NCBI GenBank assembly: GCA_018714755.1
Contig: DVMY01000085.1
Span: 12,222-76,221, forward strand
DNA from: Candidatus Aphodousia faecigallinarum
GTDB lineage: Bacteria; Pseudomonadota; Gammaproteobacteria; Burkholderiales; Burkholderiaceae_F
Direction: 5' to 3'
DNA: 64,000 nucleotides
Positions 50,122 through 61,051 of the stretch are shown here, one piece after another; position 1 is the stretch's first letter, and the number at the start of each line of letters is the position of its first letter. The translations under genes and the position numbers were made by a program. The notes beneath the pieces are model-generated. The model did no database searches, was not told the DNA's origin, and saw only the letters and a list, made by a program, of their open reading frames with translations.

Positions 50122-50907
50122 TTAATTTTTAATTTTGTAGCCTTTTTTTAAAAACCAAACGCACGTGGAAAAAGCAAAGATACAGACCCCAAGTCCCCAT
50201 ATACAGGCAATAAAAGGATCGGTTTCGAAATAGCCTAAGAATCCTCCCCTGAATCCATCAATAAGGTAGTAAAGGGGGTTCAGTGTTGTTAATTCTCGCC
50301 AGGGGGACGGCAGCGTTTCACAGGAGTAAAAAATTCCGGATAAAAAAGTCATCGGCATAACAAAAAAAGTTTGAACAACCCCCATTTGTTCATAACGATC
50401 GGACCAAATGGCTGTTATGAGTCCTAATGAGGCCATAACAAAAGCACCCAATAGAGAAAAAATAAGAATCCAGGTCATGCAATTAAATGACGGAGTGACC
50501 CAAATAGTGGTTCCCAACCAAACACAAAACCCTACGATAAGTCCTCTTAATACCGAAGAAAGAATATAGGCGGTTGCAATCATGGAGTTGCTCAGTGGTG
50601 TTACCAATAGAAAAGTTAAGGTTCCAGATATTTTTGACTGCACGAAAGATGAAGAACTATTAGCAAAGGCATTTTGTAAAACGGCCATCATAACTAAACC
50701 GGGCACCAAAAAATTCGAGTATGGGATTGATGAAGTGGAGACAACTTGATTCTGAAGAGCTGCTCCAAAAATAATTAAATAAAGCAAAGAGGACAGAACA
50801 GGCGCGGCAATAGTGTGAAAAGCCACTTTTTTGAATCGAATGATTTCTTTTCTCAGTAAAGTGAAAAAAGCGTTTCGTGCGCAAAAGGTTTGGGTATGGC
50901 TAAACAT
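50122..50907 (-). CDS. ABC-2 type transporter permease (YadH-like)
   Basis: KEIIRF...TIAAPV...YLIIFG, FLVPGLVMM..LQNAFANSSSS, FLSGIFYS and NPLYYLIDGFR; start moved to MFSHTQ. Confidence 0.87.
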   Translation of the reverse strand: MFSHTQTFCARNAFFTLLRKEIIRFKKVAFHTIAAPVLSSLLYLIIFGAALQNQVVSTSSIPYSNFLVPGLVMMAVLQNAFANSSSSFVQSKISGTLTFLLVTPLSNSMIATAYILSSVLRGLIVGFCVWLGTTIWVTPSFNCMTWILIFSLLGAFVMASLGLITAIWSDRYEQMGVVQTFFVMPMTFLSGIFYSCETLPSPWRELTTLNPLYYLIDGFRGGFLGYFETDPFIACIWGLGVCIFAFSTCVWFLKKGYKIKN

Positions 50908-50915
50908 ATTCGTAC

Positions 50916-51815
50916 TTAATGGGTAACTTTTATGAAAAGATCTTCTAGGCTGGCACGGGAAGTTTGCAGATTTTCTAATTCGCATCGGCAGGCAAACAAC
51001 GTATTGAGAATGTTTGTCAGATCCTTCGCATCAGAGAATTCAAGAATGTATTTTTGAGCTTCAGAGCTAAGAACTCGGGAAAGTAGTCCGTCTGGGATTA
51101 TTCCACTGACTAGGCGAAAGCTCAGAGTATTTTGTTTCACAGAATTGAGCAAACTGTCCGTGGTTCCCGCGGCGACGATTTGGCCGTGATTAATGATGGC
51201 AATTTCTGAGCATAAATTTTGTGCTTCTTCCAAATAATGAGTGGTTAATACAATGGTGTGGCCATTTTGATGAAGTTTTTCAATGAAATTCCACAATTGA
51301 TTTCGAAGTTGAACATCAACGCCAGCGGTCGGTTCGTCAAGCACAATGATCGGAGGCTTATGCACTAGCGCCTGTGCGACCATGACTCTTCGTTTCATGC
51401 CGCCAGAAAGCAACCTGCAAGGAGTCTGCATTTTTTCACTCAATCCCAATCCATCAATAATTTCTTCAATCCAAGCATCATTATTTTTCAGCCCGTAATA
51501 ACCGCTTTGAAAGGCGAGCATTTCATAAACGGACAAAAAGGGGTCGCAGAGAATCTCTTGAGCGACTACACCGATACTCATAAGGGCATCGGAAGTGTCT
51601 CGGGCAATGTCAAATCCTGCAATGCGGATCCCGCCTGATGTTGGTTTGACCAGTCCAACCATAGAGTTAATGAGGGTGGATTTCCCGGCACCATTTGGAC
51701 CAAGAAGACCAAAAAAAGCCCCCTCCCGAATTTGAAGAGAAATGCCTTTGAGCGCTTCAAAACCGTTTGCATAGGTTTTGTGCAAATTTTCAATGTCAAT
51801 AATGTTCGAATTCAT
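50916..51815 (-). CDS. ABC transporter ATP-binding protein (YadG-like)
   Basis: GPNGAGKST, LSGGMKRR, LDEPTAGVD and LTTHYLEEA motifs; alternative TTG start at 51824. Confidence 0.9.
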   Translation of the reverse strand: MNSNIIDIENLHKTYANGFEALKGISLQIREGAFFGLLGPNGAGKSTLINSMVGLVKPTSGGIRIAGFDIARDTSDALMSIGVVAQEILCDPFLSVYEMLAFQSGYYGLKNNDAWIEEIIDGLGLSEKMQTPCRLLSGGMKRRVMVAQALVHKPPIIVLDEPTAGVDVQLRNQLWNFIEKLHQNGHTIVLTTHYLEEAQNLCSEIAIINHGQIVAAGTTDSLLNSVKQNTLSFRLVSGIIPDGLLSRVLSSEAQKYILEFSDAKDLTNILNTLFACRCELENLQTSRASLEDLFIKVTH

Positions 51816-51820
51816 ACCGA

Positions 51821-52546
51821 TCAATCAATTTCATATCGAACAGGAATTTCTAAAGTGGCCGCACGGCGTACCTGAGTTTTCAAGCCTTTCAAATGCTGAG
51901 CGGCCGACAGTGTTGCACGCCTAAAAAGTGCGTTCCCGCCTTCCTTGAGACGGTAATCGCTCACAGAACCCGAAGCATCAATGGAGACAATTAAAAGAGT
52001 TTCCCCTTCAAGCCCAATATCTCGGGCACGTTTTGGGTAACGTTTGTGTTGCTCAATGACTTGAACGATTTGTAAGAGTGCGTTGGATATTTCATTGTTA
52101 CTTTGACCAGCACCGTTTGTGCTAGGAGCTTGTTTGGCGCTTCCAACACTTTTTTTCGTCGCTTTTTGCGGCGGTGTAACCGCTTTCTTTTCTGATTCCG
52201 GTTTTGTCTTTAGTTGTCGTTCCAACGGTTTAGTCTCTTCTTTAACTTGTTTGACGATGGGCTTAGGCTCTTGCAAGTGTATTTCCCAGGCGCTTGAAGG
52301 GACGGTCATAATGATCCAGCGAGGTTCTTTTTTGAGTGGCATCGCAACGTTTTCGACCGGTTTGATCGGATTTTGATCAATGCTCGCTTTTTGGGGCATG
52401 GCCAGTGGATCGGATAATTGAAAAAACGCTAAAGCAAACAAGCTTGTTGCAACAACGCTCGTCAATAATCTCGCTGTAAAGGTTGCCTGACGGTCATCCG
52501 GTCTCGGCTTGAAGCTGTTATAAGCGATGTGTTTTACGGGTTTCAT
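51821..52546 (-). CDS. tonB: energy transducer TonB
   Basis: Single TM, Lys/Pro-rich linker, C-terminal YPKRARDIGLEG...IDASGSV TonB_C domain. Confidence 0.85.
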   Translation of the reverse strand: MKPVKHIAYNSFKPRPDDRQATFTARLLTSVVATSLFALAFFQLSDPLAMPQKASIDQNPIKPVENVAMPLKKEPRWIIMTVPSSAWEIHLQEPKPIVKQVKEETKPLERQLKTKPESEKKAVTPPQKATKKSVGSAKQAPSTNGAGQSNNEISNALLQIVQVIEQHKRYPKRARDIGLEGETLLIVSIDASGSVSDYRLKEGGNALFRRATLSAAQHLKGLKTQVRRAATLEIPVRYEID

Positions 52547-52947
52547 TGTTTGGCCTGAGTGCTGATTACAAAGCGCCCTTCATTTTTTTCTTTTGCTAAA
52601 TCCACAAGCGGAACAAACGAGCTAAAAGAGGCTTTCCCATCCATATGAATATTCAAAATTGTGTTTGGGGAGGCTATAAGAGCTCCTTCAACCTCAGTAA
52701 GAGTGGTCGGACGATTATTCATCCAGTATGAACCGTCAGCCCGTACATTGACGCTAATTTGCCGATCAGCCCGTTTTACTTCGGCAGTTTCACTTTCTGG
52801 CAGGATAATTTCCAAGACTGGTTTCGAGAAACTCATCGTGACAACAAAGAAAATGATCAGCATGAAAAGACAGTCGATAAGAGGTGTCAGATCAATTTGC
52901 GGATCATCATCAATTGGTGAGAGACCGGGCGGAATGAAAATACTCAT
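52543..52947 (-). CDS. exbD: biopolymer transporter ExbD
   Basis: IDLTPLIDCLFMLIIFFVVT motif. Confidence 0.92.
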   Translation of the reverse strand: MSIFIPPGLSPIDDDPQIDLTPLIDCLFMLIIFFVVTMSFSKPVLEIILPESETAEVKRADRQISVNVRADGSYWMNNRPTTLTEVEGALIASPNTILNIHMDGKASFSSFVPLVDLAKEKNEGRFVISTQAKQ

Positions 52948-52950
52948 TTT

Positions 52951-53595
52951 TTATTCCTTCTCCTCATCGTTAATCGCATGGGGATTATTTTTCCCACGAA
53001 GGCGATTCATAATTTCAAGTGCGCGATAGCTATGTTCTACGGCTTCAATATGAAAACCCCTGAATTTCAGCATTAAGCCGTAATAGACCATTAACACGGG
53101 AATGGCGATGCAAAGTCCCATGACAGTTGTGATTAATGCCTGCCAGATGCCGGCTGCTAAAAGTTCGGTCGATGGCACCTCAGTAAAAGACAATGTTTTG
53201 AAAACTTCCACCATGCCGAAAACAGTGCCTAGAAGTCCAAGTAAGGGAGAAATAACACTGATGAGTTTCAACCAAACCAGACCATTGCTGACACGTTTGA
53301 AATTACGATGGAAAAGGTAGGCTACTTCTGCCCGAATGTCATCGGAGTGAGAGCCGTGAGTCGCCACAATGTCGTAGATGATTCGTATGAGGGGATTGGC
53401 CGTTCCCGGATCAATATTTCTCAGGCAACGATCTTTACCGCTTTCAAGATCAAGAAAGTCACGTCGAAAGTTTTTCCACACACGGTTTAAATAGGCAACG
53501 AGCCAGACCGATACGTACAAGGCATAAAGGGCTACGAAGATAAGCGCAACACCGGCAGGTCCTATCAATGTATAAAGAGATTCTATGTTTTCCAT
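52951..53595 (-). CDS. exbB: MotA/TolQ/ExbB proton channel protein
   Basis: SPLLGLLGTVFGM and GIWQALITTVMGL motifs. Confidence 0.9.
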   Translation of the reverse strand: MENIESLYTLIGPAGVALIFVALYALYVSVWLVAYLNRVWKNFRRDFLDLESGKDRCLRNIDPGTANPLIRIIYDIVATHGSHSDDIRAEVAYLFHRNFKRVSNGLVWLKLISVISPLLGLLGTVFGMVEVFKTLSFTEVPSTELLAAGIWQALITTVMGLCIAIPVLMVYYGLMLKFRGFHIEAVEHSYRALEIMNRLRGKNNPHAINDEEKE

Positions 53596-53606
53596 AATGG
53601 TTGTCC

Positions 53607-54116
53607 TCAGGCTAAGAATTCACGGAAAGTTTCGGTAGCGGCTCGATAATCTTCCTCGTTGGGATGCTTTGCAGCTTCTTCTCTGCGGGCAACCGATTCC
53701 GGCGTTTCTTGATAGCCAGGCATTTTTTTCATTTGTTCAATCAACACTGGATTAATTTTTCCTTGGCACAGAAATGTGGCTGCTAAGAGATTGTTGCGAT
53801 CATTGCCAACAATCGTGCTGCACTGACGGCTAAACCAGTCTTTTGCTCGTTCACTTTGTGGATTGCCACCCATCGTTGCATAGATTGCCAGGGACTTCCC
53901 TCTGATATAGGGAACGAGTTGCGCCAAATCGGGAGGGAGACCGCCTTTGTCGCACCAGAAGCCGATAATGATGCGGCTATACTTGTCTAAAAGTTCGGAG
54001 CACTTCAGTACATCGGTTGTTCTTCTGAGAGCCGTTTGAGGATAAGCTTCGTTGAGGGCTTGTCCTACTTTCCAAGTGTTTCCTGTAATAGAGCTGACAA
54101 TAATGAGTGCGGACAT
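53607..54116 (-). CDS. flavodoxin family protein (Flavodoxin_3 type, HmuF-like)
   Basis: SSITGNT FMN loop, GFWCDKG, FLCQGKI and HPNEED; located inside the heme operon. Confidence 0.82.
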   Translation of the reverse strand: MSALIIVSSITGNTWKVGQALNEAYPQTALRRTTDVLKCSELLDKYSRIIIGFWCDKGGLPPDLAQLVPYIRGKSLAIYATMGGNPQSERAKDWFSRQCSTIVGNDRNNLLAATFLCQGKINPVLIEQMKKMPGYQETPESVARREEAAKHPNEEDYRAATETFREFLA

Positions 54117-54135
54117 AACAAAGATTCCTTATCGA

Positions 54136-54633
54136 TTAGCAGAATTGCGTTTTAGCTTTTAAGAAGCCTTCTTTAACAGATTCAATCAACCGATGATTTT
54201 CTCGTCCCACGTAAATACAAAAGTGAAGTTTTTGGTCTTTACCGAAAAAAGCGACGTAATGGGATTCACGTCCCATAAATGGCATTGAAATAAAAGCAAC
54301 AGTCTCTAAAGAATCCGGATTGATGTGGCCTCCGATCACAGCGTCTTTAGCCAAAATGTTGTAATAGCCCATGGCACGCTTGCCGGCCGAGAGCTTTGAT
54401 TGGATTTCAAAGACATGACCTTCATGGATAATAAAAAGAGTGACTTTCTCCCACTGACTCATAGTAAACCAAAGGTCGTCAAACATATTGATGTTTTTGA
54501 TAAATGAACAATTTTCAGTCGGTAAAGCCCGAGCTGCTTCTAAGTCAGAGCAACCAAGTTCTCGAGCCATCAACCCTAATGTAACAGGCTTTTTAGCGTT
54601 CATTAGTTCTGAGATTTTTTCTTGTCTATTCAT
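54136..54633 (-). CDS. hutX: cytosolic heme carrier HutX/ChuX
   Basis: W.KV..II...G.VFE...GYYNI...GHI...FMG.ES...F.IYVGR signature. Confidence 0.9.
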   Translation of the reverse strand: MNRQEKISELMNAKKPVTLGLMARELGCSDLEAARALPTENCSFIKNINMFDDLWFTMSQWEKVTLFIIHEGHVFEIQSKLSAGKRAMGYYNILAKDAVIGGHINPDSLETVAFISMPFMGRESHYVAFFGKDQKLHFCIYVGRENHRLIESVKEGFLKAKTQFC

Positions 54634-56116
54634 TGAGATTCTCCGTATCAGATAATTTTTTCAGAGTGTTCATGCGCAAGGCCTGATCAGCGCACAACGC
54701 TAAAAGTTCTAAATCGTGTGTAATCAGTAAAACGGCTTTGCCTAGGCTTGCTTGTTCTTTCAAAGCATTTGCCACGCGTTGCATGTTTTCCCCATCTAAA
54801 CCGCTTGTGGGCTCATCTAGGATCAAAATATTCGGGTTTTTCGCTAGTGCGCAGGCAATCACCAATCGTTGTTTTTGCCCGCCTGAGAGTGATTGAGGAT
54901 GACGATTGGCGAGTTCTTCAAGTGAAAAAGTCTTCAATAACCCATTAATAGTTTCTTCTGCAGACTGTTGCTGATTTGCAGCAAACAGGCAAGCGTTGAT
55001 TTCTTCACGGACACTTCGCATTTGCAATTGATGGTCTGCATTTTGAAGTACGAGTCCTGTATGTTTTAGTAGTTGATCAGCAGAGGTTTGTCGGCCATTG
55101 AGGTAGAGAATCCCAGTCCCGACATTAAGCCCTGTAATCAACCTAGCTAAGGTAGTTTTGCCGCTACCATTTTCTCCGATAAGTGCGGTTATACCGGGGC
55201 CCACTTCAAAATGAATATTTTTCAGCAGTATGTTGCTTGCGTCCTTTGCCGTACCTTTGAAGAGCGTTTTCAATTTAGCAAGTTTGGAATGATGGTTGGC
55301 CTTTTCATAGTCAAAGGTCAAATCGGCAGTTTTTAAAATTGGAGACGGCACATTGCTTTCAGGTAAGGTGTTACGTACGTCTTCAACGTGTGCTTCGCGT
55401 AATCCGTAGCGCTTTCTCAAATTTGCGTCTTCGAGAATTGAAAAAGCCCCCCTTTCTTTAATTTCTCCCTGCTGCATCACTATGACTTCATCGGCGACAT
55501 GATTTAACCAATGAAGTCGGTGATCAACAATTAAAACGGCAAAGCCTGCCTGTTTTAAACGAAGTAGTTCCTGGGCGAGCCGATCGGTAGCTTCCGGATC
55601 CAAGTTGGCCGACGGCTCGTCCAGGATTAAAGCCTGCGGTTCGGAGACTAAGATTTCCCCTAGTGCCACCCGTTGTTTTTGTCCTTCTGAAAGAGCGGAA
55701 ATCGAATGGGATAAAAGATTCTCGATTGATAATCTTTGCGCAACCTGTACTACACGTTCGTTGACGATGGTTGGGGTCATACCTGCAACCTTTAAAGCAA
55801 ACCCCATCTCATCTTTTACGTTTAGGGCAAAAAATTGATCTTCTGGATCCTGAAACAGCGTGCCGATCTTGTCTGAAATAGCTGAAACGGAACTCTTTTG
55901 CGTATCTTCTCCACAAATAGTTACTTGTCCGGATATTTCGCCTGCGTAGTAATGCGGACAAAGCCCATTGGCCAACCGCATTAAGGTTGTTTTGCCACAA
56001 CCGGAAACACCGGTAATCAATACAACCTGACCGGGAAGAACTTCCAAATTGATGTTCTTGACCGCCCATTTATCTTGAAACGGATAGCGATAAGATACTT
56101 TTTCGAATTGAATCAT
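54626..56116 (-). CDS. ECF transporter fused double ATPase (A-A')
   Basis: Two ABC domains (GVSGCGKTT...FQDPEDQFF...LSEGQKQR; GENGSGKTT...QNADHQL...LSGGQKQR); start after the CAGGAG SD. Confidence 0.88.
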   Translation of the reverse strand: MIQFEKVSYRYPFQDKWAVKNINLEVLPGQVVLITGVSGCGKTTLMRLANGLCPHYYAGEISGQVTICGEDTQKSSVSAISDKIGTLFQDPEDQFFALNVKDEMGFALKVAGMTPTIVNERVVQVAQRLSIENLLSHSISALSEGQKQRVALGEILVSEPQALILDEPSANLDPEATDRLAQELLRLKQAGFAVLIVDHRLHWLNHVADEVIVMQQGEIKERGAFSILEDANLRKRYGLREAHVEDVRNTLPESNVPSPILKTADLTFDYEKANHHSKLAKLKTLFKGTAKDASNILLKNIHFEVGPGITALIGENGSGKTTLARLITGLNVGTGILYLNGRQTSADQLLKHTGLVLQNADHQLQMRSVREEINACLFAANQQQSAEETINGLLKTFSLEELANRHPQSLSGGQKQRLVIACALAKNPNILILDEPTSGLDGENMQRVANALKEQASLGKAVLLITHDLELLALCADQALRMNTLKKLSDTENLNE

Positions 56117-56133
56117 TCCGATCGCTCCTGCTG

Positions 56134-56907
56134 TCAAGGCAATCTTGGGCTACCGGGGTTAATGCCCCAATCACCTAAATAAATTTCGGCCAACAAGGCA
56201 ACGGTCACGGTGCCGAGGCACAAAGTAAAGGCCAACCAATCCTTATGAGTGAAGCCTTGATCGGAAGAGAAAGCTTTCGCGGCGTGTTGTCCAAGTCCTC
56301 GATCAAGTCCTTTTAATTCAGCAGCAACGCCTAACGCTTCGCTGCTTTTCAAGGCTCTGAACAGAATCGGAGTAAAGACCAGTCTTGCGCACAACAGAGG
56401 GTGTGAGCACAGCATTTTGAAATTTAATTGCCAACCCCGGATTTTTAGGGTTTCCCAGACTTGAGAAACATCGTGCGCAAATGTTGGGATAAAACGGATC
56501 ATCACTGTTGAAGGCAGTGTGATGATAAATGGCAGTCGCAACTGTGAAAGAGCTGCCATGATGTTTTCAATCTTCGTTGAAAGCGCGAGCCCCATGACAA
56601 GATTCATCATGGTAAGGCCGCGTAGGAATGGAATGAGTAAATTTTGCACCGTCATCTCACCAAGGTCAGGAATAAAAAGCGTAATGATGGCCGTGCATCC
56701 GATAGCCAATCCCATCATGAGGGCCATCAACCCGTATAAAACAAGGACGAGAGTGACTCTTTTGATGAGCAGTGTCATGAGAAGGCTCATGACAAAGAGC
56801 ACTAATTGAGCGGCTAAACTCGAAAAGGCAACTGTTGTGATGGCACCAAGCAGCGTTAGCAGCAGCTTTGTGCGTGCATCAATTTGTGTCAGGACGGATG
56901 TACACAT
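56134..56907 (-). CDS. ECF transporter transmembrane (T) component, CbiQ/EcfT family
   Basis: DARTKL, AL..LRLP, IRFIPT, LKIRG and AAELKG coupling helices. Confidence 0.88.
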   Translation of the reverse strand: MCTSVLTQIDARTKLLLTLLGAITTVAFSSLAAQLVLFVMSLLMTLLIKRVTLVLVLYGLMALMMGLAIGCTAIITLFIPDLGEMTVQNLLIPFLRGLTMMNLVMGLALSTKIENIMAALSQLRLPFIITLPSTVMIRFIPTFAHDVSQVWETLKIRGWQLNFKMLCSHPLLCARLVFTPILFRALKSSEALGVAAELKGLDRGLGQHAAKAFSSDQGFTHKDWLAFTLCLGTVTVALLAEIYLGDWGINPGSPRLP

Positions 56908-56910
56908 GAT

Positions 56911-57453
56911 TTAACTCCTGACCATTCCAGCATGACGCAACTCTTGAAGCGTTCGGTAACCTGTGAAAAGTCCGAGCAAACAACCTGTATATCCGATGAA
57001 AATAATTGGCAAAACAGAGACCATCAAGGCTGGAGTTTCACGCATCATGAGGTAAGAGACGGCTATGGAAAAAATTTTGGTCCCTAGGTCGTAAACGGCA
57101 ACGCCGATGTATGTTGTCCAAGCGTGTTTAAAGCCACCAGTTAACAAAATGGCTAATTCCGCAGCGATCGCTCCGACGAGTGCCGCGGGCAACAGTGTGA
57201 TGCTTCCTCCCATTAAAAGAACGCTGACGATCATTGAGACGGCAGTAAATAACAGCAATGTTCCGCTTTTTTTTACCTTAGCTAGAAGGACAATTAAGAG
57301 TGTGGTGAATACAAGGTTTTTGAGCATGAGCGTGATCGGGTTCATGCCGCCGCCCGCCAAGGCTATTAGGAGAGAAGATAGCTTAATGGCGGCGGCAAAA
57401 ACACCGATCATGACGAGTTCTTGAGATTTCCAATAGGCCGTTTTAGCGGTCAT
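56911..57453 (-). CDS. ECF transporter S component, MptD/Trep_Strep family
   Basis: 180-aa hydrophobic protein with ELV.IGVFAA, LLAKVKKSG and C-terminal LRHAGMV; directly upstream of the T and ATPase genes. Confidence 0.8.
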   Translation of the reverse strand: MTAKTAYWKSQELVMIGVFAAAIKLSSLLIALAGGGMNPITLMLKNLVFTTLLIVLLAKVKKSGTLLLFTAVSMIVSVLLMGGSITLLPAALVGAIAAELAILLTGGFKHAWTTYIGVAVYDLGTKIFSIAVSYLMMRETPALMVSVLPIIFIGYTGCLLGLFTGYRTLQELRHAGMVRS

Positions 57454-57474
57454 TTTTATTACTCGTCAAAGTGG

Positions 57475-59532
57475 TTAGAACTTGGCATTCAACTTCACCG
57501 CAAAATGCCTGCCGGGTTCGTAAATAGATCCGTTATTTTGATATTTCTTGTCGGCAATGTTGTAAAAGCCAGCATCTAAGCTGTAAGCATTTTGAGGACC
57601 GAAGGACGCGCCGGCAGTAATATTGAATGTTGTCGCACCTCCATAGCTTGTGATCGTCGGTTTTTCAGCAACCATATCGTGGCTTTCAGTAGCGCTTTGA
57701 GAGATTGCGTACACATCGGCGCGCAGATTGGCGCCATCATATGAGGTGTTGTAGCGAACGCCGTAACGAGCGGTTACTTTGGGAGTGCCAGACTTGGTGG
57801 TTTTGATCCCGTTTTCCTGATACTCACGCCTCAAAAGCGTTAAGGTTGTGTACGGTTCGAAGTTACCTAATTTGACACTACCGTCCAATTCAAAACCAAT
57901 GGTTTTTGCTTTGCCAACATTGGTGTATTGCGAGATTTTATCGGTTATTGGAATCGTCGTAATATAGTCGTCAGCATCGCTATAAAAAAGAGCAGCATCT
58001 AATGTCAATGAACCATTTGAGTATCTCGAGCCGATTTCAAAGTTATTTGACGTTTCCGGCTTCAGATCGGGATTGGCTAAAGTTGAGCCGCCGCTCATCC
58101 CCATTGAAGTGTCAACATAAAGTTCTTGTAAGAGGGGGTAGCGGTAACCTTGGGACCAATTGGCGCGAAGCGATAGATTTTCAATTGGTTTCCAAGTGGC
58201 GCCCAAGTTGAAAACGACCTTTCCATCGCTGCCATCGTTTGAACTATCCTGACTAGATCCTTTTTTTACTTTGATGTCCATTTCGCTGTCAAACCATGTA
58301 TAGCGAAGACCATAATTCAAAGAAAGGGTGTCTAGAATGGAGCTATCCATGGTGGCAAAAACAGAATGACGTGTCATCTTTCCGTCAAAGTCTTTGCTTG
58401 ACATAGTGTCATTCATCAAACTGATATAGGTAGAACTATTGGCATCAAGATCGTCTAAACTGAATTCATAGCCGGTGATCAAATAATGATTTTCACCAAG
58501 TTGCCAATCTGTTTGAATAGACGCGCTCGTTGTATTAAGTTTGTTGTCAGCATTGTTTTCCACGTAATAAGGCACCACGATCTGTCCCGTTGGCATGGAA
58601 TCGGCAACATGGTTTGTCATGAGTTTATTGTTTTGTTCGTGGCCCACATCAATACGGACTCGCATTAAATTGTCTGTTAAGTTTTTGAATTCACCAAAAA
58701 TAGCTCCGCGAGTTCTTTTCCATTCCGGAACTTCTACCCAAAAATCATCCGGGTTGGCGTAGGTGATGCTTCCAGACGAAAAATCTAAATCATAGTGGCT
58801 TGCCGAAATACCAATTGTTTTATTGGCGTCAATATCATAGGAGAGGAAAAAGTCGGCTGATTTTGCGCTGAAATCTGTGTGTGGCATTTCACCGGCAGGC
58901 GTATCTAAATCATCGTGATCTTGAATGCCAGCCCCCAATCTATAATTCCAGCCCTCGTGAGATCCTGAAATAGAGAAGGAGGCGTCTTTGCCGTTTGATG
59001 AGGAGTTAAAGCCGGTGGAAACGGAGGCCTGCAGTGGTTTTTCGCCTCCTTTTTTCGTGATGATATTAATTGCGCCGCCAATGGCGTCCGAGCCATAAAG
59101 GACGGAGGCGGGACCACGAATAACTTCAATGCGCTCGACTTGAGAAGGATCTATCAGGAGAGGAACGCCGGACATTGATTTTTGTTCGGAAATTCTTTGC
59201 CCGTCTACCATTACAACAGTTCGGAAAGCATCTTCTCCACGGATTTTGATTCGATCAATGCCTTGTCCGCCATCATTGTTAACACGAATTCCGGGAACAT
59301 TGCTTTCTAGTAAATCGGCAATGGTTTGTGCGCCAGAACTCTGTTCAATATCTTCACTTGTGATGACGGAAACGCTCATGTTAACGTCAGCAAGTTGCTG
59401 CTCGACGCGAGAAGCGGTCACGACCACATCCTGAGCTTTGTAATTTTCAGCGGCTTGTGCGCTGACTAAGGGAAGAGACAGGGCCACTGCTACAGCAAGG
59501 CTTGTTTTCTTGAAAGAGAGACTTTTTGTCAT
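57475..59532 (-). CDS. TonB-dependent outer membrane receptor, probable heme/porphyrin
   Basis: Signal peptide, TonB box DVVVTA, plug RIEVIRGPASVLYGSDAIGGAINI, FRAP/NPNL-like YRYP...NPDLKPE, C-terminal Phe; hutW/hutX context. Confidence 0.88.
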   Translation of the reverse strand: MTKSLSFKKTSLAVAVALSLPLVSAQAAENYKAQDVVVTASRVEQQLADVNMSVSVITSEDIEQSSGAQTIADLLESNVPGIRVNNDGGQGIDRIKIRGEDAFRTVVMVDGQRISEQKSMSGVPLLIDPSQVERIEVIRGPASVLYGSDAIGGAINIITKKGGEKPLQASVSTGFNSSSNGKDASFSISGSHEGWNYRLGAGIQDHDDLDTPAGEMPHTDFSAKSADFFLSYDIDANKTIGISASHYDLDFSSGSITYANPDDFWVEVPEWKRTRGAIFGEFKNLTDNLMRVRIDVGHEQNNKLMTNHVADSMPTGQIVVPYYVENNADNKLNTTSASIQTDWQLGENHYLITGYEFSLDDLDANSSTYISLMNDTMSSKDFDGKMTRHSVFATMDSSILDTLSLNYGLRYTWFDSEMDIKVKKGSSQDSSNDGSDGKVVFNLGATWKPIENLSLRANWSQGYRYPLLQELYVDTSMGMSGGSTLANPDLKPETSNNFEIGSRYSNGSLTLDAALFYSDADDYITTIPITDKISQYTNVGKAKTIGFELDGSVKLGNFEPYTTLTLLRREYQENGIKTTKSGTPKVTARYGVRYNTSYDGANLRADVYAISQSATESHDMVAEKPTITSYGGATTFNITAGASFGPQNAYSLDAGFYNIADKKYQNNGSIYEPGRHFAVKLNAKF

Positions 59533-59584
59533 TTTAGTCGGTAGAGAAACAGTTATTAGCTTTTCTCTTTGGGTTAAAAAAACT

Positions 59585-60988
59585 TTACTTTGTTTGAGTC
59601 AGTCGTTTGCCTAACACATTGACCAACAATTGGGCCATCGTGGTGTGCCAGAATTGACCGGCAATGGTCTGTACCATCCAGTCTCCCACCGGAGTGATCA
59701 GCCCGGCTTGGGACCATTGATCAAAAACATCTTGGCTAAGCTTTTCAAGAGGTAGCGAATAAACGTCACTAAGGCTACGCATATTGATGCGCCCGAGTTC
59801 CATTTCAGAGGAGATCGTGCGTAGGGCATGCCAGTAGGCGCCGGGTGCACTGGCAAAAGCGATCGGCTTAATTCCAGCTTCAATCTTTTTGCTCCATTCG
59901 TCGTACTTTCGTTCGATCATGAAGCTATAGCCATTGAGTTTCCCTCCGGCTCCGCTACCAAATGCCAGGCAGTCTGCAGCGCTTTTGCCAAAGCGGTTGT
60001 AAATATTGCGTTCGCGGAAGGTTTGGCACCAGTGATTGTTGGACAAACGGCGCCACTGGGCTTTTGTTAAAAGGTCAACAGAAAGGGCAAACATCTCGCC
60101 TCGTTCTTCTTTATCAGCTCCTGCAGGCAGCTTGCCATTTGCGATGAATTTCCCAAGAGGGGACTTTTCGAAGACATTCAGTTGGTAACAGTCCACTCCG
60201 TCCAAAGGCAAAGAAATGGCGGTTTTGACGTCATCTTCCCAAACAGCCATATCTTGATAAGGAAAGCCATAGATTAAGTCACAAACAATGCTGGCTTGAT
60301 TGAACGAAGCGAGTTTTTCGATGGATCGAATCATGGAGTCTCGATCATCGACACGTCGCATGGTTTGACGCACTTGAGTGTTAAAAGTTTGTACGCCTAG
60401 GGAGACTCTGTTGACACCGGCTTTAAAGGCAGCCTCCATTTTTTCTTCGGGGAAATGGTGAATCCGTCCTTCAAGGGTGATTTCACAGTCGTTGGCTAGG
60501 GGAAGATAGGTTCTGACGGCTTTAATTAAACGATAAAGGTCATGGGGTTCAAGCGCAGTTGGTGTGCCGCCGCCAAAATAAACAGCATGGATTGGCTCAT
60601 GATTTTGAGCGGCCAAATCGCTCCAAAGTTGTAATTCTTTGATTAAAAGATCTGTGTAATGAAGGCTGGATTCTGGTTGTAGGGGATTTTGGTAAAAAAG
60701 GCAGTACAGACAACGCGTTTCGCAAAATGGGATATTGATATAAGCCAAACTTGTACCTTGTCGACTATTTCTGTATTGATTCTTAATTACAGGAATGGCC
60801 TCATCTCCAACGTAACTTTGTCCAGGAATATGAGTGTGAACGGTAGCTTTTCCACGGAAAGCGTTCTTTAGGGGATTATCAGTGATTTCTGCTTCAAAGT
60901 TAACCATGTCCTCAAGAGCAGAGACCTGGCTTCCCATCATGGAACGTTGGGAAGATTCAAAGGATTTATGAAGGCTTTTTAACTGCAT
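59585..60988 (-). CDS. hutW: anaerobic heme-degrading radical SAM methyltransferase ChuW/HutW
   Basis: IPFCETRCLYC, AVYFGGGTPTAL, LPLANDCEITLEGR, HW...RERNIYN and AGQFW motifs; with hutX and a TonB-dependent receptor. Confidence 0.9.
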   Translation of the reverse strand: MQLKSLHKSFESSQRSMMGSQVSALEDMVNFEAEITDNPLKNAFRGKATVHTHIPGQSYVGDEAIPVIKNQYRNSRQGTSLAYINIPFCETRCLYCLFYQNPLQPESSLHYTDLLIKELQLWSDLAAQNHEPIHAVYFGGGTPTALEPHDLYRLIKAVRTYLPLANDCEITLEGRIHHFPEEKMEAAFKAGVNRVSLGVQTFNTQVRQTMRRVDDRDSMIRSIEKLASFNQASIVCDLIYGFPYQDMAVWEDDVKTAISLPLDGVDCYQLNVFEKSPLGKFIANGKLPAGADKEERGEMFALSVDLLTKAQWRRLSNNHWCQTFRERNIYNRFGKSAADCLAFGSGAGGKLNGYSFMIERKYDEWSKKIEAGIKPIAFASAPGAYWHALRTISSEMELGRINMRSLSDVYSLPLEKLSQDVFDQWSQAGLITPVGDWMVQTIAGQFWHTTMAQLLVNVLGKRLTQTK

Positions 60989-61031
60989 TACCAGCCCTTA
61001 TCAAAAAGATTAGACTAATAAAATCATTATT

Positions 61032-61051
61032 AGAAATGATAATCATTATCA
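61032..61051. promoter_or_regulatory. Fur box
   Basis: TGATAAT-C-ATTATCA (61037-61051) is a perfect 7-1-7 Fur consensus; 16/19 match to GATAATGATAATCATTATC; about 50 nt upstream of hutW. Confidence 0.9.

Follow-up and report, generated by a model that had tools for sequence, protein, structure and literature searches.

A TonB-dependent receptor of a probable heme uptake cassette in Candidatus Aphodousia faecigallinarum with methionine at both canonical histidine positions

In this study, we analysed a stretch of 64,000 nucleotides (hereafter, the window) from contig DVMY01000085.1 of Candidatus Aphodousia faecigallinarum, an uncultured Sutterellaceae gut bacterium whose genome is available as a 1.5-Mb metagenome-assembled genome (MAG) that is 76% complete. 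The subject is a gene located at 57475..59532, on the minus strand like all other features of the window given below, which encodes a TonB-dependent receptor designated here as P0001. In canonical heme receptors, one histidine of the plug and one histidine of extracellular loop 7 bind the heme iron. In P0001 both canonical positions were confirmed by sequence comparison to hold methionine (M120 and M477), with an ambiguity of one residue in the plug relative to ChuA itself. The best explanation for the gene is that it forms part of an anaerobic heme uptake and degradation cassette, and heme is by far the most likely substrate. With respect to function, we incline to the view that M477 and M120 serve as thioether ligands of the iron, jointly or sequentially, an arrangement that would suit ferrous heme in the anoxic gut.

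Methionine in the plug and in loop 7

M477 (codon at 58102..58104) lies in the column of His420 of ChuA/ShuA. A BLASTP alignment with ChuA from E. coli CFT073, a reference annotated as ChuA/ShuA whose aligned sequence agrees with ShuA nearly throughout, placed it opposite the histidine of the segment YNDSKH. A HMMER profile built from 100 relatives gave the same position on the ShuA chain 3FHH, M477 falling on His420 once the 8-residue tag insert of the construct was subtracted from the numbering. In addition, counting from the conserved E-[LM]-Y, the loop-7 ligand residue comes fifth in ChuA, in the canonical receptors L105 and L113, in relatives combining a plug Met with a loop-7 His (Met/His) and in P0001. 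M120 (codon at 59173..59175; both codons were checked) either coincides with the canonical plug His or is offset from it by one residue. An ungapped count from the DG anchor makes it equivalent to His86, while BLAST and HMMER set it on Leu87 of ChuA/ShuA, that is, His86+1, because the loop of these proteins has one extra residue before the histidine. In the canonical TonB-hemin receptor L105 (464 bits, above the cut-off), whose plug loop is equal in length to that of P0001, the plug His aligned with M120 without gaps. A preliminary description of this gene had located Met exactly on both His positions. This was right for M477, and for M120 it was right by the ungapped count and by comparison with L105, the alignments to ChuA/ShuA by BLAST and HMMER being displaced by one residue. 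The three methionines that it listed (M120, M477, and M479) were found in the open reading frame (ORF) in the contexts quoted there.

The plug apical loop of P0001 (residues 110–131, DGQRISEQKSMSG...; 59140..59205) is unstructured in the AlphaFold2 model between the strands formed by residues 105–109 and 132–139, and it aligns with the loop that carries His86 in ShuA/ChuA. No His, Tyr or Cys was found in it. Loop 7 (residues 465–492; 58057..58140) is placed between barrel strands 13 and 14 by strand count in the same model and, in the alignment to ChuA/ShuA, it is bounded by YRYP, a variant of the FRAP box, and by NPDL, a variant of NPNL. As had been noted beforehand for both segments, His is absent from residues 110–131 and 465–492, and the whole receptor lacks Cys.

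Both methionines were invariant in all 121 orthologs (identity down to 61%), the outcome of a conservation check that the preliminary description had proposed; 196 of the 685 columns were invariant in this set. Eight cassette receptors from different orders and phyla (33–58% identity) shared only 92 invariant columns out of 685, and M120 and M477 were the only ones of the 16 Met of P0001 that remained invariant among them. The pair is kept across four phyla at 33–48% identity. By contrast with these two residues, M479 (58096..58098), which had been included in the proposed feature, is Met in 5/121 orthologs and otherwise Ser or a gap; it is not part of the feature and was ruled out as a second loop-7 ligand.

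Column conservation revealed no conserved His or Cys at any position in receptors with Met at both sites (Met/Met). Five residues showed conservation specific to the Met/Met and Met/His classes: K118, M120, W271, K303, and M477. Conservation of K118 (59179..59181) was 0.94 in Met/Met, 0.92 in Met/His and 0.45 overall; the respective values were 1.00, 0.92, and 0.47 for W271 (58720..58722), in the upper part of strand 6, and 1.00, 0.92, and 0.48 for K303 (58624..58626), in strand 7. K118 and K303 are possible contacts of the heme propionates, and W271 is a possible porphyrin contact.

Receptor architecture and the heme cassette

The gene, whose boundaries agree exactly with those proposed for it, starts with ATG and has 685 codons, encoding a plug and a 22-strand barrel. 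Pfam searches detected the Plug domain (PF07715, E 3.9e-27, 95 bits against a cut-off of 23.9) and the TonB_dep_Rec_b-barrel domain (PF00593, E 1.3e-47). The AlphaFold2 model, computed from a 100-sequence alignment, had a mean predicted local distance difference test score (pLDDT) of 91, a predicted template modelling score (pTM) of 0.88 and 22 barrel strands, and its extracellular loops are short. A hydrophobic putative signal peptide (residues 1–27; 59452..59532) ends in A-Q-A, with low pLDDT over residues 1–34. If cleavage takes place after A-Q-A, M120 and M477 would be numbered 93 and 450 in the mature protein. The TonB box region QDVVVTA (residues 34–40; 59413..59433) falls, in the alignments, on the TonB-box segment near the N-terminus of ShuA and CirA. 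Plug, 22-strand barrel, signal peptide and TonB box, the features examined for the TonB-dependent transporter superfamily, are all present.

The best NCBIfam model was TonB-hemin (TIGR01785). Concerning the features that define heme receptors, the FRAP and NPNL boxes were found as the variants YRYP and NPDL, while the FRAP-NPNL histidine (ChuA His420) is replaced by Met477 and the plug histidine (ChuA His86) is absent from residues 110–131. By HMMER profile, the best PDB match was PhuR, with 279 bits, and ShuA reached 203 bits over its full length. The fold match to ChuA gave a Z score of 40.5 and a root-mean-square deviation of 2.5–2.6 Å over ~590 residues; for ChuA and ShuA taken together the values were Z ~40 and 2.5–2.7 Å, and Z was ~40 with many solved transporters. 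BtuB (Z 41) and ChuA tied as best fold matches, and Foldseek ranked PhuR first and OprC second. A Z score of 41 with BtuB is generic to the superfamily, so that the modelled fold alone leaves the substrate undecided. Two other receptor types were considered and rejected: a BtuB-like cobalamin receptor (TIGR01779, 140 bits against a cut-off of 599.7), given also the heme operon context, and an OprC-like TonB-copper receptor (TIGR01778, 91 bits against 472), given also the lack of Cys and of any class-conserved His.

The genes of the cassette appear in the order hutW, receptor, energy-coupling factor (ECF) S component, T component, fused A-A′ ATPase, hutX, Flavodoxin_3, exbB, exbD, and tonB. The first, hutW/chuW (59585..60988; TIGR04107, 490 bits against a cut-off of 400), encodes a radical S-adenosylmethionine (SAM) enzyme of anaerobic heme degradation. 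The ECF transporter comprises an S component of the Trep_Strep family (56911..57453; PF09605), which adjoins the receptor in other phyla too, a T component of the CbiQ family (56134..56907; PF02361) and the fused A-A′ ATPase (54626..56137), with two ABC_tran domains, whose best NCBIfam matches were ECF ATPase models, just below their cut-offs. They are followed by hutX/chuX (54136..54633; TIGR04108, 122.5 bits against a cut-off of 110), which encodes a cytosolic heme carrier, by a Flavodoxin_3 gene (53607..54116; PF12641), whose place in the operon corresponds to that of F. nucleatum HmuF, encoded by the last gene of the hmu operon there, and by exbB, exbD, and tonB genes dedicated to the cassette (51821..53595; PF01618, PF02472, and PF03544). 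Upstream of hutW, there is a Fur-box-like site (61032..61050) with 15 matches out of 19 to what we take to be the Fur-box consensus. Given this cassette, with hutW and hutX above their equivalog cut-offs in the same operon and the Fur-box-like site, heme is the likely substrate. The preliminary description had recognized a heme-type TonB-dependent receptor, and both the best NCBIfam model and the hutW/hutX operon agree with it. Domain annotation of the operon genes showed no hemophore or hemoglobin-binding partner.

Within the cassette (51821–61050), the inner-membrane step is represented by the ECF transporter and no periplasmic binding protein is encoded. Directly after tonB and on the same strand, a 302-aa ATPase and a 287-aa permease form an ABC-2 type exporter pair (50122–51824). 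The pair is possibly part of the operon and might serve to expel heme or a breakdown product.

The identical ten genes in identical order were found in MAGs named Sutterella and Mailhella. Nine of the ten, with no match to tonB, were present in MAGs named Succinivibrionaceae and Deferribacteraceae, and in an Opitutales MAG the cassette was rearranged and neither hutX nor tonB was detected. Apart from Opitutales, gene order is kept in Pseudomonadota, Desulfovibrionaceae, and Deferribacteraceae. All five of these cassettes contain a Met/Met receptor, and the independent Met/Met receptor P0175 is also located in a cassette. A Desulfovibrio MAG and a 3.6-Mb metagenomic contig have the cassette with a Met/His receptor.

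Histidine and methionine in the wider family and the role of the two residues

An exhaustive homolog search yielded 150 cluster representatives, and the 133 of at least 590 aa were aligned together with P0001 (134 sequences in total). The plug column was Met in 55 of the 134. Among these 55, the loop-7 column was His in 24 and Met in 18, so that 42/55 have one or the other, and Leu, Ile, and Phe were rare there. A tree built without both trait regions gave at least three switches from Met/Met to Met/His or back, a count that is approximate given that it is a FastTree tree with some long branches. A Met/Met trio is nested among Met/His rows in it, and a Met/Met and a Met/His receptor form a sister pair with 100% support. 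According to the tree, the loop-7 Met arose more than once. Judged from the alignment, the plug Met is a trait of a large family and the change specific to the clade of P0001 is that of the loop-7 His to Met. The replacement of both histidines had been described as a trait of this gene; the loop-7 step is indeed specific to its clade, while the plug Met is family-wide. Met/Met and Met/His receptors both occur inside the ECF/hutW cassette. The repeated interchange of Met and His at the loop-7 column is metal-ligand-like, and a column that alternates almost only between these two residues would be the expected behaviour of a heme-iron ligand site.

Other relatives depart from both patterns. In a subclade nested next to the Met/Met clade, Lys occupies the plug-Met column and loop 7 contains Thr or Ser; one of its members, P0160 (L115:6387-8528), adjoins tonB-exbD-exbB together with cytochrome bd oxidase and cydDC-like genes, with no hutW cassette. 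Among the relatives inside the Met/Met clade that have lost Met, P0160 and P0141 are outside heme cassettes, P0142 is ambiguous and P0133, described below, is in a cassette and has a loop-7 His, a suggestive pattern but in too small a number of cases to be counted. Relatives from marine aerobes at 30–33% identity (L030:9953-12013 from Billgrantia, L078:9941-12058 from Terasakiella, L031, and L032) share the plug motif TDH..Y, their loop-7 column being Ala-Gly or Phe-Gly, and two of them adjoin hutW and hutX. From these motifs, they may represent a third ligand solution, with His and Tyr both on the plug. A survey of 151 genomes of the same class with TIGR01785 found ten other receptors, two of them above the cut-off, which is too small a sample for residue frequencies.

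The closest setting also holds further members of the family. A homolog from Candidatus Aphodousia, the Sutterellaceae genus, is 66% identical to P0001. Three loci of the same genus (L011:1501-3681, L014:1459-3738, and L015:1462-3732) contain a second Met/Met receptor, 52–53% identical by BLASTP. It adjoins exbB in two of the three, exbD and tonB also being matched in L011, and no ECF genes occur within the 4–5 kb examined at these loci. This suggests two Met/Met receptor lineages per genus.

In the proposed mechanism, heme would cross the outer membrane through P0001 and would be moved over the inner membrane by the ECF transporter. HutX would receive the imported heme, and HutW, assisted by the flavodoxin, would open its ring. 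In the receptor, M120 and M477 would coordinate the iron together (bis-Met) or in turn, as the heme passes from loop 7 to the plug, and ligation by Met would adapt the receptor to heme in the ferrous state, given the low redox potential in the gut lumen. A broader and more tentative proposal concerns a whole family, widespread in anaerobes and as yet undescribed: receptors with a plug Met and a loop-7 His or Met might capture ferrous heme by thioether ligation, with the His/Met switches as redox tuning of heme import to the niche. If so, axial ligation of the bis-Met (or Met/His) type would be seen for the first time in a transporter of the outer membrane. The Met/Met forms have so far been found mainly in animal-gut lineages.

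Several points weigh against iron ligation by the two methionines. The score of P0001 against TonB-hemin, 242.9 bits, is below the curated cut-off of 316.85. MAFFT alignments shifted the ChuA His by 1–3 columns in some sequence sets and put it on the Met column in another, and position calls were based on BLASTP, HMMER, and motif-anchored counting instead. Receptor P0133 (L118:8001-10064) lacks the plug Met (Pro at that column) and has a loop-7 His, in a cassette with ECF, hutX, flavodoxin, and exbBD genes. Furthermore, His86 and His420 of ChuA matter for the extraction of heme from hemoglobin and are conditionally dispensable for free hemin (PMC12241658). Finally, the cryo-electron microscopy (cryo-EM) structure of PhuR has Y529 on the iron and not the biochemically proposed pair Y519/H124 (PMC10418163), and ligand assignment based on alignment can therefore fail.

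The dispensability of the ChuA histidines also bears on the best surviving alternative, in which P0001 is a heme receptor but its methionines are not iron ligands. Free heme would be held by hydrophobic and propionate contacts, for example with W271, K118, and K303, and Met would pack against the porphyrin. We regard this as rather unlikely, as we do the accompanying idea that the His pair was lost because hemoglobin extraction is not needed in the gut lumen. The class-specific conservation of K118, W271, and K303 agrees with it, and so do the short extracellular loops of the model and an operon with no hemophore or hemoglobin-binding partner. However, a steric role leaves unexplained the alternation of His and Met in loop 7, with its repeated switches and with Leu, Ile, and Phe rare at the column; His and Met are classical heme-iron ligands. 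Nor does it explain why M120 and M477 are the only invariant Met across phyla.

It is very unlikely that the substrate is other than iron protoporphyrin IX, be it a corrinoid, a non-iron metalloporphyrin, another tetrapyrrole or copper, as in the Met-using OprC. The fold comparisons could be read in this sense, with BtuB at Z 41 against 40.5 for ChuA and OprC second in Foldseek, as could the TonB-hemin score below cut-off, and ECF transporters for cobalamin and cobalt are known. Against it, hutW and hutX score above heme-specific cut-offs and flank the transporter genes in the cassettes (with the exception of hutX in the Opitutales MAG), and the FRAP/NPNL-type box is present. The TonB-B12 and TonB-copper scores are far from their thresholds (140 bits against 600 and 91 against 472, respectively), and a protein with no Cys and no class-conserved His has no OprC-like Cys/His/Met copper site. 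On the same grounds of operon context, family scores and residues, a different metalloporphyrin, which the preliminary description had offered as its alternative, is unlikely. Neutral lineage-specific drift, with Met devoid of function, is close to refuted by a pair that is invariant in 121 orthologs in which only 196/685 columns are so, conserved over four phyla at 33–48% identity and, in loop 7, acquired more than once.

Significance and comparison with known systems

The models of Gram-negative heme piracy come from aerobic or facultative pathogens, with His (or Tyr) ligands and ferric hemin. If the proposed ligation by Met is true, P0001 would select ferrous heme, and this would account for the acquisition of dietary and host heme by commensals where the redox potential is low. 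The variant is widespread and sharply defined. The motif E-[LM]-Y-x4-M together with the plug EQKSM would then provide a sequence marker for annotating such receptors in metagenomes, where they currently fall below the curated TonB-hemin cut-off.

Our literature search, whose coverage left most subscription-journal papers outside, found no characterised Met-ligated TonB-dependent heme receptor. In this regard, the statement that bis-Met ligation is not known in these receptors agrees with our search as to characterised cases, but a partial precedent exists in Tannerella forsythia. In Tanf_RS09475, the receptor of its hmu-like operon, neither of the two heme-coordinating His is present, and Tyr and Met are located at these positions or close to them, according to a single alignment-based sentence on a receptor that is itself uncharacterised (PMC6200708). 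Its partner, the hemophore Tfo, has a bis-Met pocket and, under reducing conditions, binds heme preferentially in the ferrous form (PMC6200708). Shp and bacterioferritin are further bis-Met heme proteins, and P0001 would resemble all of these by mechanism only. If ligation by Met is confirmed in P0001, the bis-Met theme would extend from Bacteroidota hemophores to the transporter itself. By its published description, the Tannerella system resembles that of P0001 in belonging to an anaerobe from a low-redox niche. It differs in that it belongs to Bacteroidota, uses an HmuY-type hemophore and has neither an ECF importer nor HutW.

At the level of the cassette, the hmu operon of Fusobacterium nucleatum is similar with respect to anaerobic heme uptake and degradation, and it encodes the anaerobilin synthase HmuW and the flavodoxin-like HmuF (PMC10404700). 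Both systems share a TonB-dependent receptor, a ChuW-type radical SAM enzyme and a flavodoxin-family protein. LhaSTA of Staphylococcus lugdunensis is an ECF-type heme importer for iron acquisition (PMC7299338) and is comparable in the use of ECF for heme import, although it belongs to a Gram-positive bacterium and has no outer-membrane receptor.

Among the characterised receptors, ChuA/ShuA (PDB 3FHH and 9DHE) share with P0001 the fold, a full-length profile alignment, the FRAP/NPNL-type loop-7 box, an equivalent plug apical loop and the genetic linkage to hutW/chuW and hutX/chuX. In the crystal structure of ChuA, His420, located in loop 7, coordinates hemin, and His86 is also required (PMC12241658). 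They differ in having His86 and His420 where P0001 has Met, sequence identity is ~28% and confined to local segments, and the loops of P0001 are shorter. The inner-membrane partner in ChuA systems is the binding-protein-dependent ATP-binding cassette (ABC) system ChuT/ChuU/ChuV, in contrast with the ECF transporter of our cassette, and the place of ChuY is taken here by the flavodoxin.

PhuR of P. aeruginosa (PDB 8THE) is likewise a heme receptor and its FRAP/NPNL loop forms a lid. Its iron-bound Tyr529 lies on a conserved extracellular loop between strands 13 and 14 (PMC10418163), and P0001 has no equivalent conserved Tyr, Gly and Ser being aligned there. The axial ligands of HasR from Serratia marcescens are H189 on the plug and H603 on the same extracellular loop (PMC10418163). 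HasR (PDB 3CSL) is TonB-dependent like P0001, is similar in fold (Z 38–40) and has its ligand sites on the plug and that loop. In contrast, it is much larger, depends on a hemophore, for which no gene was found in the P0001 operon, and has a His/His pair. In its likely function P0001 is a heme receptor, but of a separate type, which scores below the TonB-hemin cut-off and has Met in place of both defining histidines.

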